Virus record (IMG/VR): IMGVR_UViG_3300019487_000022
Span: 89,241-123,806 of that record
Length of the DNA stretch: 34,566 nucleotides
From: a virus
Strand: one strand, 5' to 3'
The notes beneath the pieces are model-generated. The model had not been told where the DNA came from. It did not search any database and saw nothing but the letters and a program-made list of their open reading frames with translations. The position numbers were made by a program, and so were the translations under genes. Shown one piece after another: positions 1 through 31,171 of this stretch. The first letter of the stretch is position 1. Each line of letters begins with the position of its first letter.

Positions 1-1737
1 TTTGGTAATGTTTATTTAGAAGAAAATATTTACGATAGAATTGGCGGAAATAAAAATATCCCTCATCCAAATAAAGATGGTCGGCGAAGAAGATATAATG
101 CAGCTTATATTTACAATAAAAAAGGAGAACCCGCAACAAGGGCAATTAATACTCTCAATTTGTTGCCTAAAGGCATACAAATTAAATCAAATCTTCCTAA
201 CTATAGATTCTTTGATGATGTAAGATATTTCTTTTCAATGCAAGATCATATTAAAGAATTTGGTATTTCAAATATCGGTGCTTATAGCCCATTTGACATT
301 GATGGTATTAACATTGGATTCGCATTGTGTGAAGATTTATGGTGCGAAGATTACAGAGAAGGCGAAGAATCAATCAATCCAACTAAATACTTGGCAGAAA
401 ATGGTGCAGAGGTTATAGTTAATCTTTCTGCTAGTCCCTGGACTTACGGTAAAAAAGATGCAAGACATAAAAGAGTAAAAAAAGTTCTAAGCGATTACAG
501 ACCTATTAATAAAGCAAGAATGCCCGTCTCTATGTTCTATGTCAATTGTTGCGGTGTGCAGAACAATGGCAAAAACATCATAACATTTGATGGCGGTTCT
601 ACAATTTACGATGGAGCAGGGAATCCTGTTGTTGTTTCAAACGAAATGTTTAAGATGGATCTTCTTATAGCCTCTGTATCTTCAAACTTGCAGATAGAAA
701 ATTCTAATATAAATTCAGATTTATCGTCTCCAAATGTTTTAGTAAAACGTGATAAAATTGAAGAAAAGTATTTAGCTATTAAAACGGCTATTCAACATTT
801 TGTTAAATGCAATGCTGTAATTGGTGTAAGTGGAGGCATTGACTCCGCAGTAGATGCGGCTCTATTTGCTGACGCTATTGGTCCAGAGAATGTTATCGGT
901 ATCAATATGCCTACCAGGTATAACAGCGAAACTACTAAGAATGCGGCTAAAGAATTATGCGATAATCTTAAAATCCCATATTATGTAATCCCTATCGAAG
1001 ATATGGTGGAAGCAAATAGAAAGGCATTAGACAAATATAGCAAGCTTAAAAAGCAAGATACATTCCTACAGTCTCTTGTTGAAGAGAATATTCAAGCTAA
1101 AATCCGTGGCGCAAGTGTTTTATCCAATATTGCGCAGATGGAGAATGGGATTTTTGTAAATAATGGAAATAAAATTGAGGTTGCTATTGGATATGCTACT
1201 CTTTACGGAGATTGGGGCGGTGCTATTGCTCCTTTAGGAGATTTAACAAAAACAGAAGTATATGAATTAGGAAAATACCTTAATCAGCATGTCTTTAAGA
1301 AAGAGGTTATTCCTGCCGCATCTTTTAATGTTGCTCCAAGTGCTGAATTAAAAGAAAATCAAAAAGATCCCATTATTGTAGAATACCATTCTGCAATGAT
1401 CGATAAAATGACAAACTATATGATTGCCTCTGCAACTGATTTTATGGAATGGTGGCTAGAGGGTAAGTTAGAAGAAAAATTAGGTATTTCTAATGATGTT
1501 CTGCAAAAATACAATCTTACAAATGCTGAAGTATTTTTGAAAGATTTGAAGTTTATATTATCTCGGGAAAGAAATCAGGTTTTCAAACGAGTACAAAGTG
1601 TTCCTATTGTTGTTACTTCCAAGACAGCTTACGGATACGATAGAAGAGAAAGTATAATGCCTTCTTATACTTGGACTAAAAAAGCTGAAGAATTAGAAAA
1701 GCGTATTAGAGAACGCGGTAGTTATACCTTTTCATAA
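1..1737 (+). CDS. nadE: glutamine-dependent NAD+ synthetase (nitrilase/CN-hydrolase domain + synthetase domain), 5'-partial
   Basis: Frame is open from base 1. Motifs: KxxLPNYRFFDD, CEDLW (catalytic Cys), NLSASP, FDGGS, SGGIDS (PP-loop), GYATLYGD, PSAEL. Confidence 0.95.
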   Translation, partial: FGNVYLEENIYDRIGGNKNIPHPNKDGRRRRYNAAYIYNKKGEPATRAINTLNLLPKGIQIKSNLPNYRFFDDVRYFFSMQDHIKEFGISNIGAYSPFDIDGINIGFALCEDLWCEDYREGEESINPTKYLAENGAEVIVNLSASPWTYGKKDARHKRVKKVLSDYRPINKARMPVSMFYVNCCGVQNNGKNIITFDGGSTIYDGAGNPVVVSNEMFKMDLLIASVSSNLQIENSNINSDLSSPNVLVKRDKIEEKYLAIKTAIQHFVKCNAVIGVSGGIDSAVDAALFADAIGPENVIGINMPTRYNSETTKNAAKELCDNLKIPYYVIPIEDMVEANRKALDKYSKLKKQDTFLQSLVEENIQAKIRGASVLSNIAQMENGIFVNNGNKIEVAIGYATLYGDWGGAIAPLGDLTKTEVYELGKYLNQHVFKKEVIPAASFNVAPSAELKENQKDPIIVEYHSAMIDKMTNYMIASATDFMEWWLEGKLEEKLGISNDVLQKYNLTNAEVFLKDLKFILSRERNQVFKRVQSVPIVVTSKTAYGYDRRESIMPSYTWTKKAEELEKRIRERGSYTFS

Positions 1738-4278: not shown

Positions 4279-4557
4279 ATGAGCTGTAATTGCGCAAAAG
4301 GTAATAAACGAATACAAGAAGAGCAAAGACATAAGGATTTAATTAATGGTACTATTCAATCTGTGTCATTAGAAGTCTTGCAACAACGACGTGAAGCATG
4401 TAGAACCTGTCCGTTAGCCACTAAGAACCCAAACCCAAAATACGCCAAATTTGGCGGTTTAACGAATTTAAGTAAATGTAAGCGAACGGACAGGTTATTA
4501 CTTTCCGCATTAAAAGATCCCGAATATAAATGCCCAGAAAAACTATTTAAGCAATAG
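4279..4557 (+). CDS. Cys-rich hypothetical protein
   Basis: ORF starts 2 nt after the lysozyme stop; CxC, CxxCP and CP motifs. Confidence 0.7.
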   Translation: MSCNCAKGNKRIQEEQRHKDLINGTIQSVSLEVLQQRREACRTCPLATKNPNPKYAKFGGLTNLSKCKRTDRLLLSALKDPEYKCPEKLFKQ

Positions 4558-4684
4558 TTTTAGGCTTACGTTTACGGCTAGCTCTTGCGGCTTCTATTGA
4601 AGCACGAAGTTCTTTACGTAATTCTCTTTTTCTTTCATCTCTGCGTTTTCTGATTCTACGTAATTTTTTAGCTATTTTATGCAT
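4547..4684 (-). CDS. 45-aa highly basic small protein (not in ORF track)
   Basis: Hand translation MHKIAKKLRRIRKRRDERKRELRKELRASIEAARASRKRKPKTIA; starts 1 nt after the upstream stop. Confidence 0.55.
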   Translation of the reverse strand: MHKIAKKLRRIRKRRDERKRELRKELRASIEAARASRKRKPKTIA

Positions 4685-5680: not shown

Positions 5681-5754
5681 TGCGTCACGGTGGGACTTGA
5701 ACCCACAACCTGAAGATTTGAAATCCTCCGCTCTGCCAATTGAGCTACGTGAGC
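5681..5754 (-). tRNA. tRNA with UCA anticodon (opal suppressor-type), acceptor stem with one bulged C
   Basis: GCTCACG/CGTGA(C)GC-A; D-arm GCTC/GAGC; anticodon arm GAGGA-TTTCAAA-TCTTC; 5-nt variable loop (not a tRNA-Sec body); T-arm GTGGG-TTCAAGT-CCCAC. Confidence 0.88.
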
Positions 5755-5799: not shown

Positions 5800-6558
5800 T
5801 TATGTATTATCTTTAATGTCTGTATCTTCTTTAGGATTTTCTGCAAAGAAATCCTGAGTTGTTAAAGACATTAACTCATCTGCTGCTTCTTTATTATCTG
5901 TGGAACGAGCTCTAACAGCGGATTTAACTTTACTGACATATGATATACGAGAAGTTCGTAATGTGTCAAATGCATTTTTTGTTCCTTTTTCAGATGGAAC
6001 ATAATTTAATGTGTTATTTACACTAAATCCTAGTTCTTTAGCAGTTTTAAGGGTATTCTCATCGCACCCTATAAATGTGAATGTCCATGCACGACTTGAA
6101 CGAAATTCTTCCAATATTGTTTTAAGTTTACCGAAGTCTCGCCATTCTTGCGATGAAGAATTTTCGCCTCCATCAGTAAAAATAGTGACTACAACATTGA
6201 CACTTTGAGAAGTCAATTGATCCCTAATCTCTTCAGAAAGACGTTGTACTGTTTTTCCAATTGCCTCATATAGTGCAGTACTTCCTGATGGACTATATGT
6301 ATTAGTGGTCAAGTCTTTGATTTGATTAACAGGCTTATCCCATATATCACAAGAAACTGAATCATTAAAAGTAACAAAATATAATTTTTGTTCTATTTCT
6401 GAATCGTTTTCTTGTTCTTTACGAAGTGCGATCAGGTTTTCGTTAAACCCGTCGATAGTTGACTGACGAACCGATGTCATAGAACCGCTTTTATCCAAAA
6501 TCAGTACATGACATATTGTGTGTTTACCTAACACACTCTGAGCTGCATTTGTAGACAT
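5800..6558 (-). CDS. von Willebrand factor A (vWA) domain protein
   Basis: MIDAS LDKSGSM, TALYEAI, FTDGGEN. Confidence 0.9.
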   Translation of the reverse strand: MSTNAAQSVLGKHTICHVLILDKSGSMTSVRQSTIDGFNENLIALRKEQENDSEIEQKLYFVTFNDSVSCDIWDKPVNQIKDLTTNTYSPSGSTALYEAIGKTVQRLSEEIRDQLTSQSVNVVVTIFTDGGENSSSQEWRDFGKLKTILEEFRSSRAWTFTFIGCDENTLKTAKELGFSVNNTLNYVPSEKGTKNAFDTLRTSRISYVSKVKSAVRARSTDNKEAADELMSLTTQDFFAENPKEDTDIKDNT

Positions 6559-9263: not shown

Positions 9264-10958
9264 CTATTTCATTTTAAATGTATAAAGACTGTTATTTTTT
9301 GTTATAACAGCCTCATCTCCATATCTGTGAATTTTCATCTTCCCATTAACAGCATTGTCACTCACAACTGTTAATCGTGTATCATCTTTTGTGTTTTTGA
9401 ACACATTTACATCGTCTTTTTCATCAATATGAATGCATATTCCATTTTTAAGCACTGTAAAATTCAATCCAGAATATACAATATCCTCATCGATACGCAT
9501 ATCATATGTATCATGAGACGAATTAAATCTTAATACAAAACGATCATATCTACCCTGTTTAGTTACTCCTATCATCATTAAAACAGAACTTTCATATTTT
9601 GCGTCAATTATCTTATGTTTTGCAATTTCAGGTATAGTTATGCGTTTATGCATTCGCTCGGATGGAAATACAGAAACAAACTTCATATCAATCAAGTTCT
9701 GTATTGCTATTCCGTCAAAAAGTGTAGTTGCTTTTTCAGAAACGTTAGCAATTGGCTGATTGATAATTTTTATCGTATTAGGTAGTTCTATGTAACGTAT
9801 TTCATTAATCCAAGTTCCATTTTTAATGTATACCCTTCCTTGACAAACCATCATATCTGAAGCAGATACCGAACCTATTTCTTTATTGGCAATAAAATCT
9901 GTGAATTTTGCTAATCCATTTTCTAAATATGCAACAATAGGTTTATTTAATTGAGGCGTAAATATAACTTCAGAATTAGATGATATAGCAACTGGAGAGT
10001 TGTTATTGAATTTGCCGGACTTTTTATCTGTGACGAATCTATGTCCAAAACTGAAAATGATATTTGTAAGTTCTCCCATTCCAGAAAATTCTTCAATTTT
10101 CTTGACAATAAATTTATTACTACCAATGAATTGATTAACTCTAGGTACATAAATAACAGTATCTATTTTGTTACTTTGTGGAGGAAGCAATCTTTTTCCC
10201 TCTTCAAAAATTGCAAAATACCATTTACGATATTCATCCGGTATCACATCTACGGGATCACATGCTGCTGGTACTAAAACATCTTTGTTAAATACCGATA
10301 TATTATGAGCCATTCGCTCTTCAAATCCTTTATACTTATCATGTCTCCCCTTAAATGGATGAATACCTGTAAAAAGTTGAAATGTAATTATTCCCCAAGA
10401 ATACCAATCAGAAAGAACTGTAAACTTGTTATCTTTTATCAAAGGATCTTTTATATTTGGCATAATAGCCGTAGCAGGATGTTTTTTGGTTTGATAAGTA
10501 TTTGTATCTATAAAATAAACCTCTTTTAAATCTTTTCTAACGAGAAAGTTCAACTCATTACAATCAACAACCAATATCTCTTTTTTATGAAGATGTTCTA
10601 TCCCCTCTTGCAATCTCTTTACAAGGAAAAGAATCTGATCTTGATTGACATTGTTTTTATTTTTAAATGCACGAGTAAATAACTGACATAAAACGTATGT
10701 ATTAGTTACATACTTCATACTATAGCCAATGGGACGGTTTTTCTTATCTAAAATAATATCTTCTGGTTTAATTATATTAGGAAGAGTAATAGCAGATAAT
10801 TCTTGTATTTTCTCATATGGTATCATCTTTGACGGATCTGAATAAATCTTAAAAACAGTATCTCCGTGAGCAAATATTTTCCCTTCTCCACCTTCAGCTA
10901 GAAAATCTGAAGGATCAAGCTTTAGTTTCCCTTTGCCTTGTATTGTGAAGTCAAGCAT
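9264..10958 (-). CDS. Ser/Thr protein kinase (YegI/TerY-P-triad-like) with C-terminal beta-rich domain
   Basis: Gly-rich loop LAEGGEGKIF, catalytic D-x4-N (VVDCNELN), IDTN, SDWYSWGII, GIHPF. Confidence 0.85.
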   Translation of the reverse strand: MLDFTIQGKGKLKLDPSDFLAEGGEGKIFAHGDTVFKIYSDPSKMIPYEKIQELSAITLPNIIKPEDIILDKKNRPIGYSMKYVTNTYVLCQLFTRAFKNKNNVNQDQILFLVKRLQEGIEHLHKKEILVVDCNELNFLVRKDLKEVYFIDTNTYQTKKHPATAIMPNIKDPLIKDNKFTVLSDWYSWGIITFQLFTGIHPFKGRHDKYKGFEERMAHNISVFNKDVLVPAACDPVDVIPDEYRKWYFAIFEEGKRLLPPQSNKIDTVIYVPRVNQFIGSNKFIVKKIEEFSGMGELTNIIFSFGHRFVTDKKSGKFNNNSPVAISSNSEVIFTPQLNKPIVAYLENGLAKFTDFIANKEIGSVSASDMMVCQGRVYIKNGTWINEIRYIELPNTIKIINQPIANVSEKATTLFDGIAIQNLIDMKFVSVFPSERMHKRITIPEIAKHKIIDAKYESSVLMMIGVTKQGRYDRFVLRFNSSHDTYDMRIDEDIVYSGLNFTVLKNGICIHIDEKDDVNVFKNTKDDTRLTVVSDNAVNGKMKIHRYGDEAVITKNNSLYTFKMK

Positions 10959-10959
10959 T

Positions 10960-11844
10960 TTAACTCACGTTTAAGACAGCAACTGAAACATCATCAAAAT
11001 TTTGCCAATCTAATTTTACTATTTCTTTTTGAAACCAATTAACTTGTCGTTGTACAAAAGATCCGTTTGTATTACGAAAATCCAGAAGAACTTTTAATAC
11101 TTCTTCTAACGGAATAGAGTCAGGGTTTTCACCCTTTCTGGTAAATGAATTTACACCATCGGATAAAAGCGCTACCCACTCAACATCCTCTTCTACAGCA
11201 AAACAATAACACCCATGTTCTGTATGAAAACCTCTAAATGTTGGCTTTGTCCAATTCTTCATATTGACTCTTTGATATTCTTTCCATTCAGAATCATAAC
11301 TAATTTCGGTTTGAATAATGCTTTCTTCTGGACCTCCTGCGGCATTTAATATACTTTTCCATTGTTCCATTCTTTCTGCATCATGTAAATAATTGAGATA
11401 TGCCGGATAGCCAGATATATACTCCATAGTATAAACTAAATATGTTTTATTCTTCAATTTGAAAACAATTATTCCATCTCCAAATAAAGAAGCATAAATC
11501 ATATCTAAAGGGGCTATTTCTTGACCGAATAATGATGTTTCAGCAAACATTTTACCGGCATACCCCAATGTCGCATCCAAACATGAATAATCTAAATTCA
11601 AAGATTTACAGATATTTCTTGCTTCCGATATAGCCAACCTATCTATCTTTTGAAGATCAATATCTGGATAATAATTGACCATTTTATTTGCTGATAAAGA
11701 TAGAATTCTTGCACCAACATCTGTCATTGGAGATCCTGAACAGCCATCTGAAATGATAATCCGGTTATAAGCTTTATTTACAAATGCAAAATCTTGACAC
11801 ACATGGTGTCCTTTACCTTGAAAAAAAGAACAATCCACGTTCAT
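10960..11844 (-). CDS. PP2C-like protein phosphatase (YegK-like)
   Basis: H-x-x-CQD, SDGCSG, ATL, GDG, SDG and terminal DD motifs; start moved to MNVDCS (GGAG RBS). Confidence 0.85.
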   Translation of the reverse strand: MNVDCSFFQGKGHHVCQDFAFVNKAYNRIIISDGCSGSPMTDVGARILSLSANKMVNYYPDIDLQKIDRLAISEARNICKSLNLDYSCLDATLGYAGKMFAETSLFGQEIAPLDMIYASLFGDGIIVFKLKNKTYLVYTMEYISGYPAYLNYLHDAERMEQWKSILNAAGGPEESIIQTEISYDSEWKEYQRVNMKNWTKPTFRGFHTEHGCYCFAVEEDVEWVALLSDGVNSFTRKGENPDSIPLEEVLKVLLDFRNTNGSFVQRQVNWFQKEIVKLDWQNFDDVSVAVLNVS

Positions 11845-11863
11845 AATATCTCCAAATAAAAAT

Positions 11864-11906
11864 ACCTGGTAATCTGAAGGCACAAATATATTCCAGATTA
11901 CCAGGT
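11864..11906 (-). terminator. intergenic 13-bp hairpin followed by an A/U tract
   Basis: ACCTGGTAATCTG/CAGATTACCAGGT, then ATTTTTATTT on the minus strand. Confidence 0.55.
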
Positions 11907-11934
11907 TCAAGATGTCTTAAACTATAGCGTAGAA

Positions 11935-12690
11935 TCAGAACTTCAATGGTACAGATGCAGAACCTGTACCGAGAGCCTGGCTTTGTGCAGAAATACTCTT
12001 AGAAACAAAGTTGGCTAGCTTCTTTAAAGTATTTGTATCTGCGTTTTTCTGTTCTACGTACTGTGTAAGCCCACCTTCTTTATAAAAATCAGCAAGCCTT
12101 TGTGATGTATTCTGATCTTCAATACCAACGCCAATTAAAATTGAAATAATTGACTCTAAAGATTCATCTTTGATAGTTTGCGCCAATACGGCTTTAACAT
12201 CTGATGCATTGCAAGATGAGACATTATCACAACCGTCTGTAATAACAACAACAATTCCATTTACCTGAAACCTTTGATTAGCTAATTTTGTAGCATAATC
12301 ATGTGTTGCCATAATTGCGTTCTTTGTAGCATCAAATAAAGCAGTTGAACCACCCACCTGAAGACAATCATTATAATCGTCAACTTTGCAATTATCCAAA
12401 GGTTTAAAACCATGTGTTTGAGAAACAGAACTTGAAAATTGGAGGAAACGAAATAGTAGATTGTCTTTTCTGGGACTAAATTGACAGGCTTCAACTATCT
12501 TTTGAATCGTTTCTTCCATTTGAACTTTATATGGTTGCACAGAGCTTGAAACATCGTTTACCAATGTAACAAGTGTAAATTCTGTTGCAATTTCATCCAA
12601 ATCAGCAACCTTTGCAGCAGAATACGTAAAATTCGCTTTAACAATCTTATGATCTTCAAGCGAATTACTGATAGTAGCGGATTTAGACAT
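11935..12690 (-). CDS. vWA domain protein (TerY-like)
   Basis: DVSSSV (DxSxS), TALFDA, ITDGCDN; start moved to MSKSAT (AGAGG RBS). Confidence 0.85.
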   Translation of the reverse strand: MSKSATISNSLEDHKIVKANFTYSAAKVADLDEIATEFTLVTLVNDVSSSVQPYKVQMEETIQKIVEACQFSPRKDNLLFRFLQFSSSVSQTHGFKPLDNCKVDDYNDCLQVGGSTALFDATKNAIMATHDYATKLANQRFQVNGIVVVITDGCDNVSSCNASDVKAVLAQTIKDESLESIISILIGVGIEDQNTSQRLADFYKEGGLTQYVEQKNADTNTLKKLANFVSKSISAQSQALGTGSASVPLKF

Positions 12691-12868
12691 CTGATTTCCT
12701 CTTTCTGTTCTTGGATTCAGTATATTGTTCCTGGCACAATTCACAGAACCAAATACTGTTTTTCTTTTTAATCTTGCCTAAACAAACGCGAAAATTATGT
12801 CCCGTCGATATCATTTCTCGACAAATTTTATCTAAAGGCAGATTTTTTAATTTTAATCTTTTTTGCTA

Positions 12869-13678
12869 TTAAAGCATGTAATCTGTTGTAGTAGTGATTC
12901 TCATTCCTCTTGCACTCAAATCTTTGACAAATTTTTCACCCAAAGATTCAAAACCACCTACATTGCTAGATGCATCTTTAAGCAAGATAAGATTCTTTAC
13001 AAGCTCATCATTTTTAAATTCATCCGCAACATCTCGAAAAGTGTTAGCAACACAGTGGCTTAAAGCTTCACCTGAAATAAGAATTTCATCTGCTTTGATT
13101 AAACTTTCAATGAATTCTCCGTCCAATTGAGTATAAGGATCATTTGGATCCTCAACTTCTGCTTTAATAGCACTATAATGTTCGCAATAGGGATTACTTC
13201 CTTTTGTCTTTGTCTGAATGACCTGGAAGTTATCTCTTGCCCATGCTCTTAATTCCTCATGCAATGGAGGATAAATCGCTTGCCCAGCACTTCCAATAAT
13301 GCAATGTGGAGGCCAGATACATAAAGCATATTTGCCTTTTGCCGCTAAATCACGAACATAATTTAATGCAATATTGCAAATGCTTTTTGAAGGCATTGCA
13401 GGCGTCCATTTGCCTTTTTCTACATCTTCTGGATTAATGATTGTAAATGGAGGTGGGTTTTTGCCGTTAGCATCAACCCAAAAACAAGGATGAGCAATAT
13501 GTAGATCGTGGTGACTATCGAGAGTAACGCGAATATTTTGTAATTTACGACCAAATTTCTTAACGAACTTAGCTAAACGATTCATATCTTCGTTTGCCCC
13601 TGCAACATATAGACTCCCTTTTGGATCGCAAAAGTCTATTTGAGGGTCAATAATGCACAGTTCGATACGTTTGGGCAT
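12869..13678 (-). CDS. nicotinamidase/isochorismatase-family cysteine hydrolase
   Basis: IDPQIDF, DSH, WPPHC, KG-x-N, GEALSHCV (catalytic Cys); start moved to MPKRIE (AAAGGA RBS). Confidence 0.85.
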   Translation of the reverse strand: MPKRIELCIIDPQIDFCDPKGSLYVAGANEDMNRLAKFVKKFGRKLQNIRVTLDSHHDLHIAHPCFWVDANGKNPPPFTIINPEDVEKGKWTPAMPSKSICNIALNYVRDLAAKGKYALCIWPPHCIIGSAGQAIYPPLHEELRAWARDNFQVIQTKTKGSNPYCEHYSAIKAEVEDPNDPYTQLDGEFIESLIKADEILISGEALSHCVANTFRDVADEFKNDELVKNLILLKDASSNVGGFESLGEKFVKDLSARGMRITTTTDYML

Positions 13679-13767
13679 TGGATAATCCTTTCTATACGTG
13701 TAATACGATGGGGTTTGACACAACCGGAGATAATTACAAAATACTTTAAAAGGTTAAAAAATTAAGA

Positions 13768-19068: not shown

Positions 19069-19149
19069 TGCGGGCGACAGGAATCGAACCTGCACACCTT
19101 ATGGTACTGGCTTCTAAGACCAGCGCGGCTGCCGTTACGCCACGCCCGC
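19069..19149 (-). tRNA. tRNA-Leu(TAG), long variable arm
   Basis: GCGGGCG/CGCCCGC-A; CTGGT-CTTAGAA-GCCAG; T-loop TTCGATT. Confidence 0.93.
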
Positions 19150-19163
19150 AAATATCTTTAAAG

Positions 19164-19293
19164 TGGGACAGGCGGGATTCGAACCCTAACAGTATTGCTA
19201 CTGTAGCTGACAGTTCATGTGTTCGCGACGGGACATGCTGTCAACGCATCTGTCGATTAGAGGTCTCTATCGGCTTACTTAGCCCACTGTCCC
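19164..19293 (-). ncRNA. 130-nt tRNA-like RNA with a 59-nt structured insertion in the T-stem
   Basis: Acceptor GGGACAG/CTGTCCC-A; D-like GGCT/AGCC; GCG-[insert]-GG-TTCGAAT-CC-CGC; no canonical anticodon arm. Confidence 0.75.
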
Positions 19294-19295
19294 AA

Positions 19296-19370
19296 TACGC
19301 CCGAGGGGATTTGAACCCCTAAGCATCTCCTTCTAAGGGAGATAGGTTTGCCAATTTCCGTCACAGGCGT
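19296..19370 (-). tRNA. tRNA with TAG anticodon (Leu), short variable loop
   Basis: ACGCCTG/CGGGCGT-A; TCTCC-CTTAGAA-GGAGA; 5-nt variable region; AGGGG-TTCAAAT-CCCCT. Confidence 0.88.
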
Positions 19371-22418: not shown

Positions 22419-23441
22419 TCAACTAAAATCATTATCATCTGGCGCATGTTTCGGATTAATTAACTTAAGAGCCAAACGAAACTTTGTTGTTGAATAACGA
22501 GGAATTAGTGGAGTTACAACAACACCTTCTTTTATATGTAACGAATTGCCACTGATATTTTCTTTTCCTTCTCTTAAAGGACGAATTTTATTGATATCAA
22601 ATGGACCTTCATATAAAACAGGCACCCAAAGCTTCCGTAAATCTTCAGGAATTTCTGAAAATGGTAAAGTCCTACCTTCAACATCAATCCTGAAAATAAA
22701 TATAGTTTTCTTTTTTAAACCGTAGTTGTATCCTTTATGAAAAGGAACGACCTCACCAAATGCTTGAGTATTTACACTAGGAAAATGTTTTTCCAAAAGA
22801 TCAAAGAGTCCAGAATCATTAGCTACAATACGATACGCAACATCTGCTTCATCAGCAAAAAATTGATCGTTATCAAGTAATCCTTTTGATGTAACTAACC
22901 TTTTACCATCTGCTAGTTTGACATACACACCTTGAGTACCATGAATTTTCTCTGTAACTTGTACATGTTCACCCTCTACAAATTCATTAGGATAAATATT
23001 GTAAGTTTCAACTTCGTGCTTATGAATATCTGTACCAATTGTTTCAAGAGAAAATACCTCTCCAACCAATTCATCTGGAATTGGAGCTATATATCGCGTT
23101 ATCCCTAACCTAGCAGAAATATCTTCACCTAATGGAACATCCACTAATGCAGGAATATCATCAAGAATAATTCCCTGAGTCAGCTCTTTTTGCATAACCA
23201 GGGCTTTAACACGATTCTTTTCAGGACCAACTAAGTATTTACGGCGATCCCCTTCATCAGCAATTGCATCTGGTAAAACGGATTTTTCAGGAACAAAAAT
23301 TACAATGCTCTCGTTCTTGAAAATTCCTTTACCAACGACCACCTGATATTGCCCCACTTTACCTAGTTCCAATCTCAAAACCTCTGGATTAGGGTGAGGA
23401 AATAACTGTATCTTTTCTCTTGTAACTTTCCACTGTGCCAT
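22419..23441 (-). CDS. ATP-dependent RNA ligase, DRB0094/Rnl2-like
   Basis: N-terminal tRNA-binding-type domain (HPN...LEL...YQVVV.KG); motif I TEKIHGT, FGEV, EGVVV, KLIN. Confidence 0.9.
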   Translation of the reverse strand: MAQWKVTREKIQLFPHPNPEVLRLELGKVGQYQVVVGKGIFKNESIVIFVPEKSVLPDAIADEGDRRKYLVGPEKNRVKALVMQKELTQGIILDDIPALVDVPLGEDISARLGITRYIAPIPDELVGEVFSLETIGTDIHKHEVETYNIYPNEFVEGEHVQVTEKIHGTQGVYVKLADGKRLVTSKGLLDNDQFFADEADVAYRIVANDSGLFDLLEKHFPSVNTQAFGEVVPFHKGYNYGLKKKTIFIFRIDVEGRTLPFSEIPEDLRKLWVPVLYEGPFDINKIRPLREGKENISGNSLHIKEGVVVTPLIPRYSTTKFRLALKLINPKHAPDDNDFS

Positions 23442-26020: not shown

Positions 26021-26106
26021 TGGATGATGGAGGAGTTGAACCACTTGCCTGTCCGCCCGATTTAATTAGGCAACCGGGTTACAGCCGGTCATCGGGAACA
26101 TCATCC
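26021..26106 (-). ncRNA. D-armless tRNA-like RNA with GTA anticodon and a 9-nt T-stem insertion
   Basis: GGATGAT/ATCATCC-A; ACCGG-CTGTAAC-CCGGT; CCCGAT/ATCGGG helix replaces the D-arm; GGA-[CAGGCAAGT]-GG-TTCAACT-CC-TCC. Confidence 0.75.
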
Positions 26107-26183: not shown

Positions 26184-26218
26184 ATAGGCATCTATTCAGT
26201 TTTCAAAGAACTCACAAG

Positions 26219-26301
26219 AGACTGGGGTGAGATTCGAACTCACGTTGTCTTTCGACAGTCGCTTTGCAGGCGACCCCATTTGTCCACTCTGGCACCCAGT
26301 C
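26219..26301 (-). tRNA. tRNA-Cys(GCA) with long variable arm
   Basis: GACTGGG/CCCAGTC-U73; GTCGC-CTGCAAA-GCGAC; variable hairpin TGTC-GAAA-GACA. Confidence 0.9.
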
Positions 26302-26373: not shown

Positions 26374-26985
26374 ATGAAAACATCGTGTTCAGACTGCAAT
26401 AATACCTTTGATAAAAAATCTTATGAAATTAAACGCACTAAATATCATTTTTGTTCTCTTAAATGTTGGTCAAATTTTCAAAATAAGAAAAAACCAACTA
26501 AAATTAAAGTAACATGTGCAACTTGTGGTTTTAACTTTTTTAAAATTCCAGCAGAGATCTCTAAAACTGGTAATTCTTTTTGTAACCGTTCTTGCGCTGT
26601 TGTGTTTAATAACCGTAAAAAACGTAAAAGCAGACGTTCTAAAGCAGAAAAAATGCTTTTTGATTTATTAAATAAATCTTTTCCTAACCTTCCTATTCTT
26701 GCAAACGACAAATCATTATTAGATGGTTTAGAAATTGACATAGCTTTTCCTAGTCTTAAACTTGGCATAGAATGGAATGGTATAGTCCATTTTAAACCAA
26801 TTTTTGGTACACAAAAATTTCTAAAAATTCAACACAACGATATCAGAAAACAAAAAATAGCGTTTGAAAAAGGCATTCACTTAATTGTTGTGCCAGATCT
26901 TGTTTCTACTAAATCCTATGTTGAGGACGCTGCAATGAGCATCAAACAGATCATAACATCTCTGCTTGATAAACCGGAGAGGTAA
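26374..26985 (+). CDS. free-standing endonuclease: Cys-rich zinc-binding repeats + DUF559/Vsr-like PD-(D/E)xK domain
   Basis: CxxC...FCSxxC repeated twice; S-x-x-E, LEIDIAFP-x3-LGIEWNG-x-x-H; antisense to the tRNA array. Confidence 0.8.
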   Translation: MKTSCSDCNNTFDKKSYEIKRTKYHFCSLKCWSNFQNKKKPTKIKVTCATCGFNFFKIPAEISKTGNSFCNRSCAVVFNNRKKRKSRRSKAEKMLFDLLNKSFPNLPILANDKSLLDGLEIDIAFPSLKLGIEWNGIVHFKPIFGTQKFLKIQHNDIRKQKIAFEKGIHLIVVPDLVSTKSYVEDAAMSIKQIITSLLDKPER

Positions 26986-27060
26986 TAGAATCGAACTATC
27001 AACGTTTTACCGTCAGCCGAGTGTTCAAAACTCGTTGGGAACCGTTTCCCGCTACCCTCC
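26975..27060 (-). tRNA. tRNA-Ser(TGA), non-canonical (tRNA-Sec-like D-arm, bulged acceptor)
   Basis: GGAG-GGT(A)/(T)ACC-T-CTCC-G; D-arm GGGAA-ACGG-TTCCC; CGAGT-TTTGAAC-ACTCG; long variable arm. Confidence 0.8.
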
Positions 27061-30667: not shown

Positions 30668-31171
30668 TTAGAAGCGGAAACCTACGCCCAATCCGTACAC
30701 AAATGCCCCATCATCGAAGCCGTCTTCAAGAGGTACTTCATATTGAACAATACCGTAAATATATGTGGTATCGTTAACGAAATACTTAACGCCTGCTTCA
30801 GGTCCACCGATCCATTCATCCTGTACGCAGTCACCATATTGATAACCAACGCTTACACCAACAAATGGTTGCCAACGTTGTAAATCAAAATGATACTGAG
30901 CAAAACCGACAGTAGCACCATTTACTACTGAATCGCTTCCCTCACTATCAGACCAATTTACAGTCTGACGAAGACCGAATTCCACTTCTTTCGTAGTGAA
31001 ATAGCCAATACCAACAGTAGCGCCAAGCGAATTGCTATCAAAATCGTTATCGCTTGCACCGCTACCATTGAGAGTCAAATCCCAGTTACCCTTTTCTGCC
31101 GCTTGCCCGAAAGCAAAAGACGACATCAAGGCGAGACTCAAAACAATAACAGATACGAACTTACGCAACAT
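30668..31171 (-). CDS. small outer-membrane beta-barrel protein
   Basis: Sec signal peptide, alternating amphipathic strands, C-terminal YGLGVGFRF (BAM signal Phe); AAGGAG RBS. Confidence 0.85.
   Translation of the reverse strand: MLRKFVSVIVLSLALMSSFAFGQAAEKGNWDLTLNGSGASDNDFDSNSLGATVGIGYFTTKEVEFGLRQTVNWSDSEGSDSVVNGATVGFAQYHFDLQRWQPFVGVSVGYQYGDCVQDEWIGGPEAGVKYFVNDTTYIYGIVQYEVPLEDGFDDGAFVYGLGVGFRF

Follow-up and report, generated by a model that had tools for sequence, protein, structure and literature searches.

A 130-nt anticodon-less tRNA-shaped RNA gene with a proposed T-stem insertion in the tRNA cluster of a huge phage

The element and its genomic setting

The window, meaning the whole 34,566-nt stretch of DNA analyzed here, is the terminal part of a linear viral record of 123.8 kb (IMGVR_UViG_3300019487_000022) that originates from a cave metagenome and is rated 26% complete. 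The record contains terminase, portal, sigma factor and ribonucleotide reductase genes, and records of the same terminase clade reach sizes of up to 460-550 kb, so the phage can be regarded as a huge phage. Sixteen tRNAs were called in the window, all on the minus strand and mostly for Leu, Ser, Tyr and Cys. Within this cluster lies the gene for a 130-nt anticodon-less tRNA-shaped RNA (19293 to 19164, minus strand), referred to below as the element. The upstream tRNA-Leu(TAG) (19296-19370, minus), which has a short variable loop and no CCA, is separated from the element by 2 nt, and a downstream class II tRNA-Leu(TAG) (19069-19149, minus) starts 14 nt past it. The first-pass annotation had placed the element between two tRNA-Leu genes without giving a strand; that placement is correct, and both neighbors are Leu(TAG) genes. 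The element has no encoded CCA, the next bases being CTTT, and no promoter or terminator signal above background was found near it. Its sequence is not an assembly artefact, since the identical sequence occurs in two further assemblies (L127 and L128, probably from the same sample) and contigs of a DNA sequencing run, probably that of the source sample, show the element without a variant or joint.

Several other genes in the window deserve mention. A 73-nt short-arm tRNA with a UCA anticodon (5682-5754, minus) is reported by ARAGORN as SeC but lacks Sec arms and is opal-suppressor-like; TGA still serves as the stop codon of 13 of the 78 long ORFs of the genome. A tRNA-Cys with a long variable arm is located at 26218-26301 (minus), and another gene resembling tRNA-Ser(TGA), which ARAGORN reports only when its threshold is lowered, at 26976-27060 (minus). 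Protein genes of note are found at 9264-12744 (minus), 160-1737 (plus), 12869-13723 (minus) and 30668-31171 (minus), and include a triad of vWA, PP2C phosphatase and protein kinase, an NAD synthase with an isochorismatase-family gene and a neighboring upstream gene, and an outer-membrane beta-barrel gene. An RNA ligase of the DRB0094/Rnl5 family (22419-23441, minus; TIGR02306, 242 bits versus a cut-off of 151) is of interest here only as context. The ligase is 63% identical to a protein from a Phycisphaerales MAG, and a phytase-domain protein (L131, 5792-9220, minus) has an N-terminal motif which we take to be like the planctomycete LE.R.L signal; each is a hint of the host only.

Fold of the element and its T-stem

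Read from its 5' end, the element begins with the 5' strand of the acceptor stem (19287-19293), which forms seven Watson-Crick pairs, among them G1-C72 and G3-C70, with pair probabilities of 0.73-1.0. A 2-nt linker leads to a D-arm-like hairpin (19272-19284) of 4 bp with the 5-nt loop AAGUA and without the G18G19 pair (p ~0.6, z -1.9). The hairpin at the anticodon position (19258-19269) has 4 bp and the 4-nt loop GACC, and there is no 7-nt anticodon loop. A hairpin can be drawn here, as the first-pass annotation did, but it is weak (z -0.36) and has two alternative drawings. The variable-arm position is taken by a hairpin of 3 bp and a tetraloop (19248-19257; p ~0.6) which equals the variable arm of the downstream tRNA-Leu in size and for which another fold is possible. 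The proposed outer half of the T-stem, G49 and C50 (19246-19247, with 19172-19173 as partner), is followed by a 59-nt insert (19187-19245) between T-stem positions 50 and 51. Hairpin 1 of the insert (19206-19245) consists of 8 bp, a 2-nt bulge and 5 bp, with one G-U pair and a 12-nt loop containing the palindrome UCGCGA, while hairpin 2 (19189-19204) has 6 bp and a GCAA (GNRA) tetraloop; a TA dinucleotide separates hairpin 2 from the inner T-arm. Both hairpins, with pair probabilities of 0.8-1.0, are as first described. The inner T-arm (19174-19186) has three G-C pairs (51-63, 52-62 and 53-61) and the canonical T-loop TTCGAAT, and is followed by G64, C65, the acceptor 3' strand and the discriminator A73 (19164-19173), with a canonical spacing of 12 nt from T-loop to discriminator. 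The perfect acceptor stem, A discriminator and TTCGAAT loop of the earlier description are likewise all present.

The fold of the element is well above chance. Of the 42 pairs in the model, 41 are Watson-Crick, one is G-U and none is a mismatch, and the fold scores a z of -3.17 against shuffled sequences, none of 200 shuffles being as good. The insert alone gives a z of -2.85 (p 0.01), and a 3-bp T-arm with a perfect acceptor stem is met once per 9.9 Mb of shuffled genome, or about 0.007 times per window. The GNRA loop and the G-U pair favor an RNA made from the minus strand. The insert loop could also form a 4-bp loop-loop contact with the variable-arm hairpin, for which the estimated chance expectation is about 1 in 4.

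The insert was originally assigned to 19186-19244. Its length of 59 nt and the restoration of the stem on its removal stand, and the two registers 19187-19245 and 19186-19244 yield an identical 71-nt product, but the folding energies are -42.9 and -37.3 kcal/mol, respectively, a difference of 5.6 kcal/mol to the disadvantage of the latter. In the folding model the insert is better placed at 19187-19245 (GC, insert, GGG), which corresponds to tRNA positions 50/51. The dinucleotide GC at 19246-19247 gives the best fold among all dinucleotides able to pair with positions 64-65, and analogous RNAs (see below) also point to it. In the 50/51 register the 3' strand is unbroken through 3+2+7 = 12 pairs, and a 12-pair acceptor branch is canonical tRNA geometry (PMC5389517). 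The minimum-energy fold from ViennaRNA (-44.7), computed with a model that has no coaxial stacking, lacks the two outer T-stem pairs, and adding them costs 1.8 kcal/mol; the split T-stem therefore rests on geometry and analogues and not on energy. In an alternative fold, positions 8-11 pair with the 3' strand of the T-stem (118-121) at p ~0.4-0.5.

Known RNA classes, relatives and opened T-stems

The element possesses the 7-bp acceptor stem, discriminator and T-loop consensus of canonical tRNA (RF00005). Where RF00005 has a 5-bp anticodon stem with a 7-nt loop and U33, however, the element has a 4-bp stem and 4-nt loop with or without the insert, and instead of G18G19 in the D-loop and a continuous T-stem it has the loop AAGUA and a split stem, with no match to the family at E up to 10. 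A search of Rfam at the gathering thresholds and at E up to 10, as the first-pass annotation had proposed, placed the element in no known family and gave only a 13-nt T-arm match. Among the classes considered and rejected, tmRNA (RF00023) would have G3-U70 where the element has G3-C70, matches the T-arm only (13 nt, 9.7 bits versus a cut-off of 47) and was not called by ARAGORN. Group I or II introns and known self-cleaving ribozymes do not fit an insert of 59 nt with no Rfam match at E up to 10. YrlA-type Y RNA was dismissed on the normal order of the arms, the free acceptor ends, the lack of an Rfam match and the lack of a TROVE gene in the partial record, and allo-tRNAs of the 8/4 or 9/3 type on the 7-bp acceptor stem and on position 8 (U), which faces C.

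The element is like RNA1 and RNA2 of phage T5 (misc_RNA rna1 and rna2; AY692264), which are tRNA-shaped, are ~125-135 nt long and lie in the phage tRNA cluster. All three have a 7-bp acceptor stem, a hairpin at the D position, a T-loop and, where a normal anticodon arm would be, a folded domain. The T5 RNAs have a continuous 5-bp T-stem, a D-loop with GG and their extra domain at the anticodon position, whereas the element carries its main cargo inside the T-stem and has a D-loop without GG, and no sequence likeness was found between them. The species 1 and 2 RNAs of T4 (rnaC and rnaD; NC_000866) are small stable RNAs of 119-139 nt that are co-transcribed with the tRNA cluster (PMC2330249). 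The T-arm at the end of T4 rnaC shares its T-loop with the element, but the 5-bp T-stem of rnaC is intact, its interior is unrelated and the similarity is not above background. The element thus works like T5 RNA1/RNA2 and the T4 species 1/2 RNAs without being a homologue, and differs from them by its split T-stem and reduced D-loop. The non-canonical tRNAs of Mukai et al. (2017) comprise allo-tRNAs 8/4 and 9/3, SelC* tRNA-Cys, 8/4 tRNA-Sec with a bulge 51a, and E-loop tRNA, and a one-base bulge inside the T-stem is thereby on record (PMC5389517, PMC7609411). Like the element, these tRNAs keep a 12-bp acceptor branch and have an altered T-stem, but they retain the anticodon arm and shift pairs between stems, whereas the element has a 7-bp acceptor stem, a 59-nt opening and no anticodon loop. 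Archaeal T-arm introns share with the element an insertion in the T-stem whose removal restores the stem; unlike them, the element has no bulge-helix-bulge (BHB) motif and no tRNA product, and it is found in a bacterial-type phage.

No homologue of the element was found by exact patterns in viral, metagenome or genome contigs, by BLAST in GenBank phages or in 27 related records of the terminase clade (where the pattern search was also blank), or by a single-sequence covariance model run on the compared loci and 49 records. The best other matches to that model, at ~20 bits, were tRNAs or shells that match by their ends. The first-pass annotation had named a lack of homologues and covariation as counting against its proposal; no search revealed a homologue, and there is consequently no covariation for the element RNA itself. 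Since the viral relatives that could be searched whole have terminase identities of at most 55% and are mostly fragments, closer ones existing at 57-63%, this absence is weak negative evidence. The neighboring proteins led to no syntenic locus: relatives of the RNA ligase lack such a tRNA block, the 292-aa neighbor protein has no homologue and the 191-aa neighbor has weak ones only. In the literature, in which subscription papers were thinly covered, we found no description of phage RNAs with large insertions in the T-stem. The element is a singleton, and as such a lead rather than a family.

Openings of the T-stem at 50/51 do occur in other phage RNAs, over a range of 1-54 nt. With a pattern that required nothing more than an A50/G64 clash, 26 distinct sequences with an acceptor stem were retrieved; 17 of these (~11 lineages) have an unrequested GC one base upstream, where ~1.6 would be expected, and two have it three bases upstream. 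Further pairs seen at 49-65/50-64 in unselected tRNAs are GG/CC and GA/TC. A 50/51 bulge is rare in unselected tRNAs (4 of 515), and its frequency does not clearly exceed that of bulges at neighboring steps, so the notion of a 50/51 'hot spot' is unsupported. Larger openings include a 33-nt hairpin insert in a full cloverleaf (L058, 9500-9604, minus; Rfam tRNA 39.8 bits), a 54-nt insert in a cloverleaf within a tRNA cluster (L273, 5571-5695, minus), and an insert of ~49 nt, with an ambiguous partner dinucleotide, in a reduced shell from a phage of the same terminase clade (L231, 5874-5983, minus). None of these three genes has relatives among the loci compared. A CATGT/ACATG stem common to the element and L273 is also seen in unrelated loci and was discarded as a chance likeness.

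A D-armless Tyr(GUA)-like RNA in the window itself (26023-26106, minus) also has its T-stem opened at the 50/51 step. It belongs to a family with members in three related phages (L227 ~9488-9572, L234 ~4519-4607 and L241 ~10836-10924, all plus) that has two covarying pseudoknots, the second strand being inserted in the T-stem at 50/51. The family was missed by Rfam and by ARAGORN at default settings, and no match was found among GenBank phages. Judged by this comparison of sequences, the opened T-stem is a real and selected layout in this phage group, because the pairing of the inserted strand with the bases that follow the anticodon arm is kept in four RNAs of differing sequence.

Other tRNA-like RNAs were recorded in these and other phages. 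A 1-3-nt bulge at T-stem 50/51 recurs in phage tRNA-Glu(UUC) (L034, L061, L062, L066, L075, L085, L098, L102 and L105). In the related huge phages there are ~15 further tRNA shells, 110-170 nt long, and almost all of them have an intact T-stem. A 159-nt tRNA shell without an Rfam match lies outside the window in the same genome (G000:C1 42148-42306, minus; L132 ~6148-6306) and apparently has a large D-loop insertion and a 6-nt loop at the anticodon position. A family of 123-141-nt shells in related huge phages (L222/L227, L226/L243/L244, L231, L232, L235 and L236) has a conserved domain (AAAC...TCGA...GGTTAAC) in place of the anticodon arm, presumably with a faint likeness to HDV-type ribozyme motifs. 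A conserved viral RNA of ~128 nt (L011, L016, L021, L044, L045, L093, L106 and L116) has a 10-bp terminal stem, three internal hairpins and a 3-bp T-arm but neither D nor anticodon arm, and the three members tested gave no Rfam match. A Leu-type shell of 157 nt (L003, 2054-2210, plus) has three internal hairpins and an intact T-stem; its acceptor and T-arm letters are the same as those of the element, but it was selected by those letters and is not independent evidence. The tRNA cluster of a related phage includes a GOLLD RNA (L241, 8780-9241, plus; 183.7 bits).

Explanations for the element and its putative role

It is conceivable, though very improbable, that the T-stem is not split at all and that the element is an ncRNA only loosely like a tRNA, in which a 3-bp T hairpin is free or positions 8-11 extend the acceptor helix of a many-way junction. 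The two outer pairs missing from the minimum-energy fold and the competing helix of positions 8-11 would agree with this, but exactly two bases separate the 3-bp T-arm from the acceptor strand, the unpaired dinucleotide at the foot of the insert is complementary to them, and analogous RNAs have the same split layout. Alternatively, the insert could be an unusual T-stem intron, cut out by an endonuclease, with the phage RNA ligase joining the remaining ends into a 71-nt RNA; the first-pass annotation had considered an intron whose removal leaves such an RNA. Archaeal introns occur in T-arms, removal here restores a perfect 5-bp T-stem, and the ligase gene is only 3 kb away. Nevertheless, splicing of this kind is highly unlikely. 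There is no bulge-helix-bulge in either register, the best central helix having three G-U pairs and neither flanking helix; 59 nt would not accommodate a group I or II intron; and the joined RNA, which has no 7-nt anticodon loop, no 5-bp anticodon stem and no D-loop GG, is recognized by ARAGORN only at a much lowered threshold. The 26%-complete record contains no splicing endonuclease, RtcB or Ro60/TROVE gene, which for the first two is a weak argument against splicing. The ligase that had been noticed is indeed encoded in the window. The model enzyme of TIGR02306 seals 3'-OH/5'-PO4 nicks in duplexes (PMC5397189), which points to repair; ends left by a splicing endonuclease would need healing before such a ligase could join them.

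A dead or neutral pseudo-tRNA, that is, a tRNA gene (possibly a copy of a neighbor) that a hairpin-forming DNA insertion has inactivated and that has since been drifting, would account for the lack of a homologue in any search, the adjoining Leu(TAG) genes, the non-canonical D and anticodon loops, and the 12-nt stretch identical to the upstream Leu(TAG) that is left by a 56-nt deletion. Yet none of the 42 pairs is mismatched, and the loops are gone while the stems are perfect, the opposite of what random decay would produce. No second copy of the insert exists in the 124-kb record, the internal repeats of the insert (including GACAG repeats and a second TGTCCC, both set aside) are at chance level (p 0.13-0.69), and neither a terminal repeat nor a target duplication is significant. 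The alignments single out no parent tRNA, other tRNAs of the window matching equally well, and the lack of homologues counts for little when the nearest searchable viral relatives have at most 55% terminase identity. Such a pseudogene is unlikely on balance but retains an appreciable probability because the element RNA is a singleton. Less probable still, and improbable by any reckoning, is that the element serves only as a processing signal, a mascRNA-like tRNA shape that directs an RNase P cut to free the 3' end of the upstream tRNA-Leu, its interior being incidental. The preserved parts of the element are those read by tRNA-processing enzymes, and the upstream tRNA, 2 nt away, has no encoded CCA; but the next real tRNA, 146 nt further on, would give a cut anyway, other tRNAs of the window have no such neighbor, and 59 nt of perfectly paired cargo would be left unexplained.

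We lean towards the view that the element is an unspliced, tRNA-processed, non-decoding RNA built on a tRNA chassis, which presents hairpins at the place of EF-Tu binding. The 12-bp acceptor/T helix (7+2+3), the T-loop and the discriminator are kept; the anticodon loop and the D-loop GG are absent, and the RNA is unable to read a codon. A set of 41 Watson-Crick pairs and one G-U pair without a mismatch, along with loss of both tRNA-defining loops, fits selection on structure and not decay. Loss of the D-loop GG counts against a processed chassis in that it weakens the elbow favored by processing enzymes. The tRNA mimic or domain-displaying scaffold suggested by the first-pass annotation fits the anatomy and the analogues, and that overall reading is supported in part. 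The element would be co-transcribed with the Leu tRNAs, as are the T4 species I/II RNAs with theirs (PMC2330249), and, by analogy with established tRNA biology, RNase P would cut at 19293 and 3' trimming would be followed by CCA addition. Three T-stem pairs set EF-Tu affinity (PMC3239215), and the insert branch lies among these pairs, which would keep the element off the ribosome and makes its exclusion from translation likely. Aminoacylation is doubtful, as A73 and a Leu-sized variable arm are present but the D-loop GG is not. The shell would give stability and the two hairpins would be the working cargo shown to a protein or RNA partner, and the most plausible putative role is to act during infection as a decoy or scaffold for a factor that binds tRNA. 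A more tentative proposal, possible though somewhat doubtful, is that T-stem 50/51 is the plug-in site of an undescribed phage design that keeps the 12-bp helix for RNase P and the CCA enzyme, locks out EF-Tu and displays a folded domain. That domain would here be the two hairpins, and the self-complementary UCGCGA loop could allow dimerization.

The T-stem is normally the most invariant tRNA helix and the handle for EF-Tu. The T4 species 1/2 RNAs and T5 RNA1/2 have been known for decades, and to our knowledge their function is still unexplained; RNAs of the type of the element are missed by tRNA finders. If the fold holds, a T-stem can bear a large branch with the processing geometry intact, and the element would offer a direct test of maturation in an RNA that is excluded from translation, as well as a natural second insertion site for tRNA-scaffold design.
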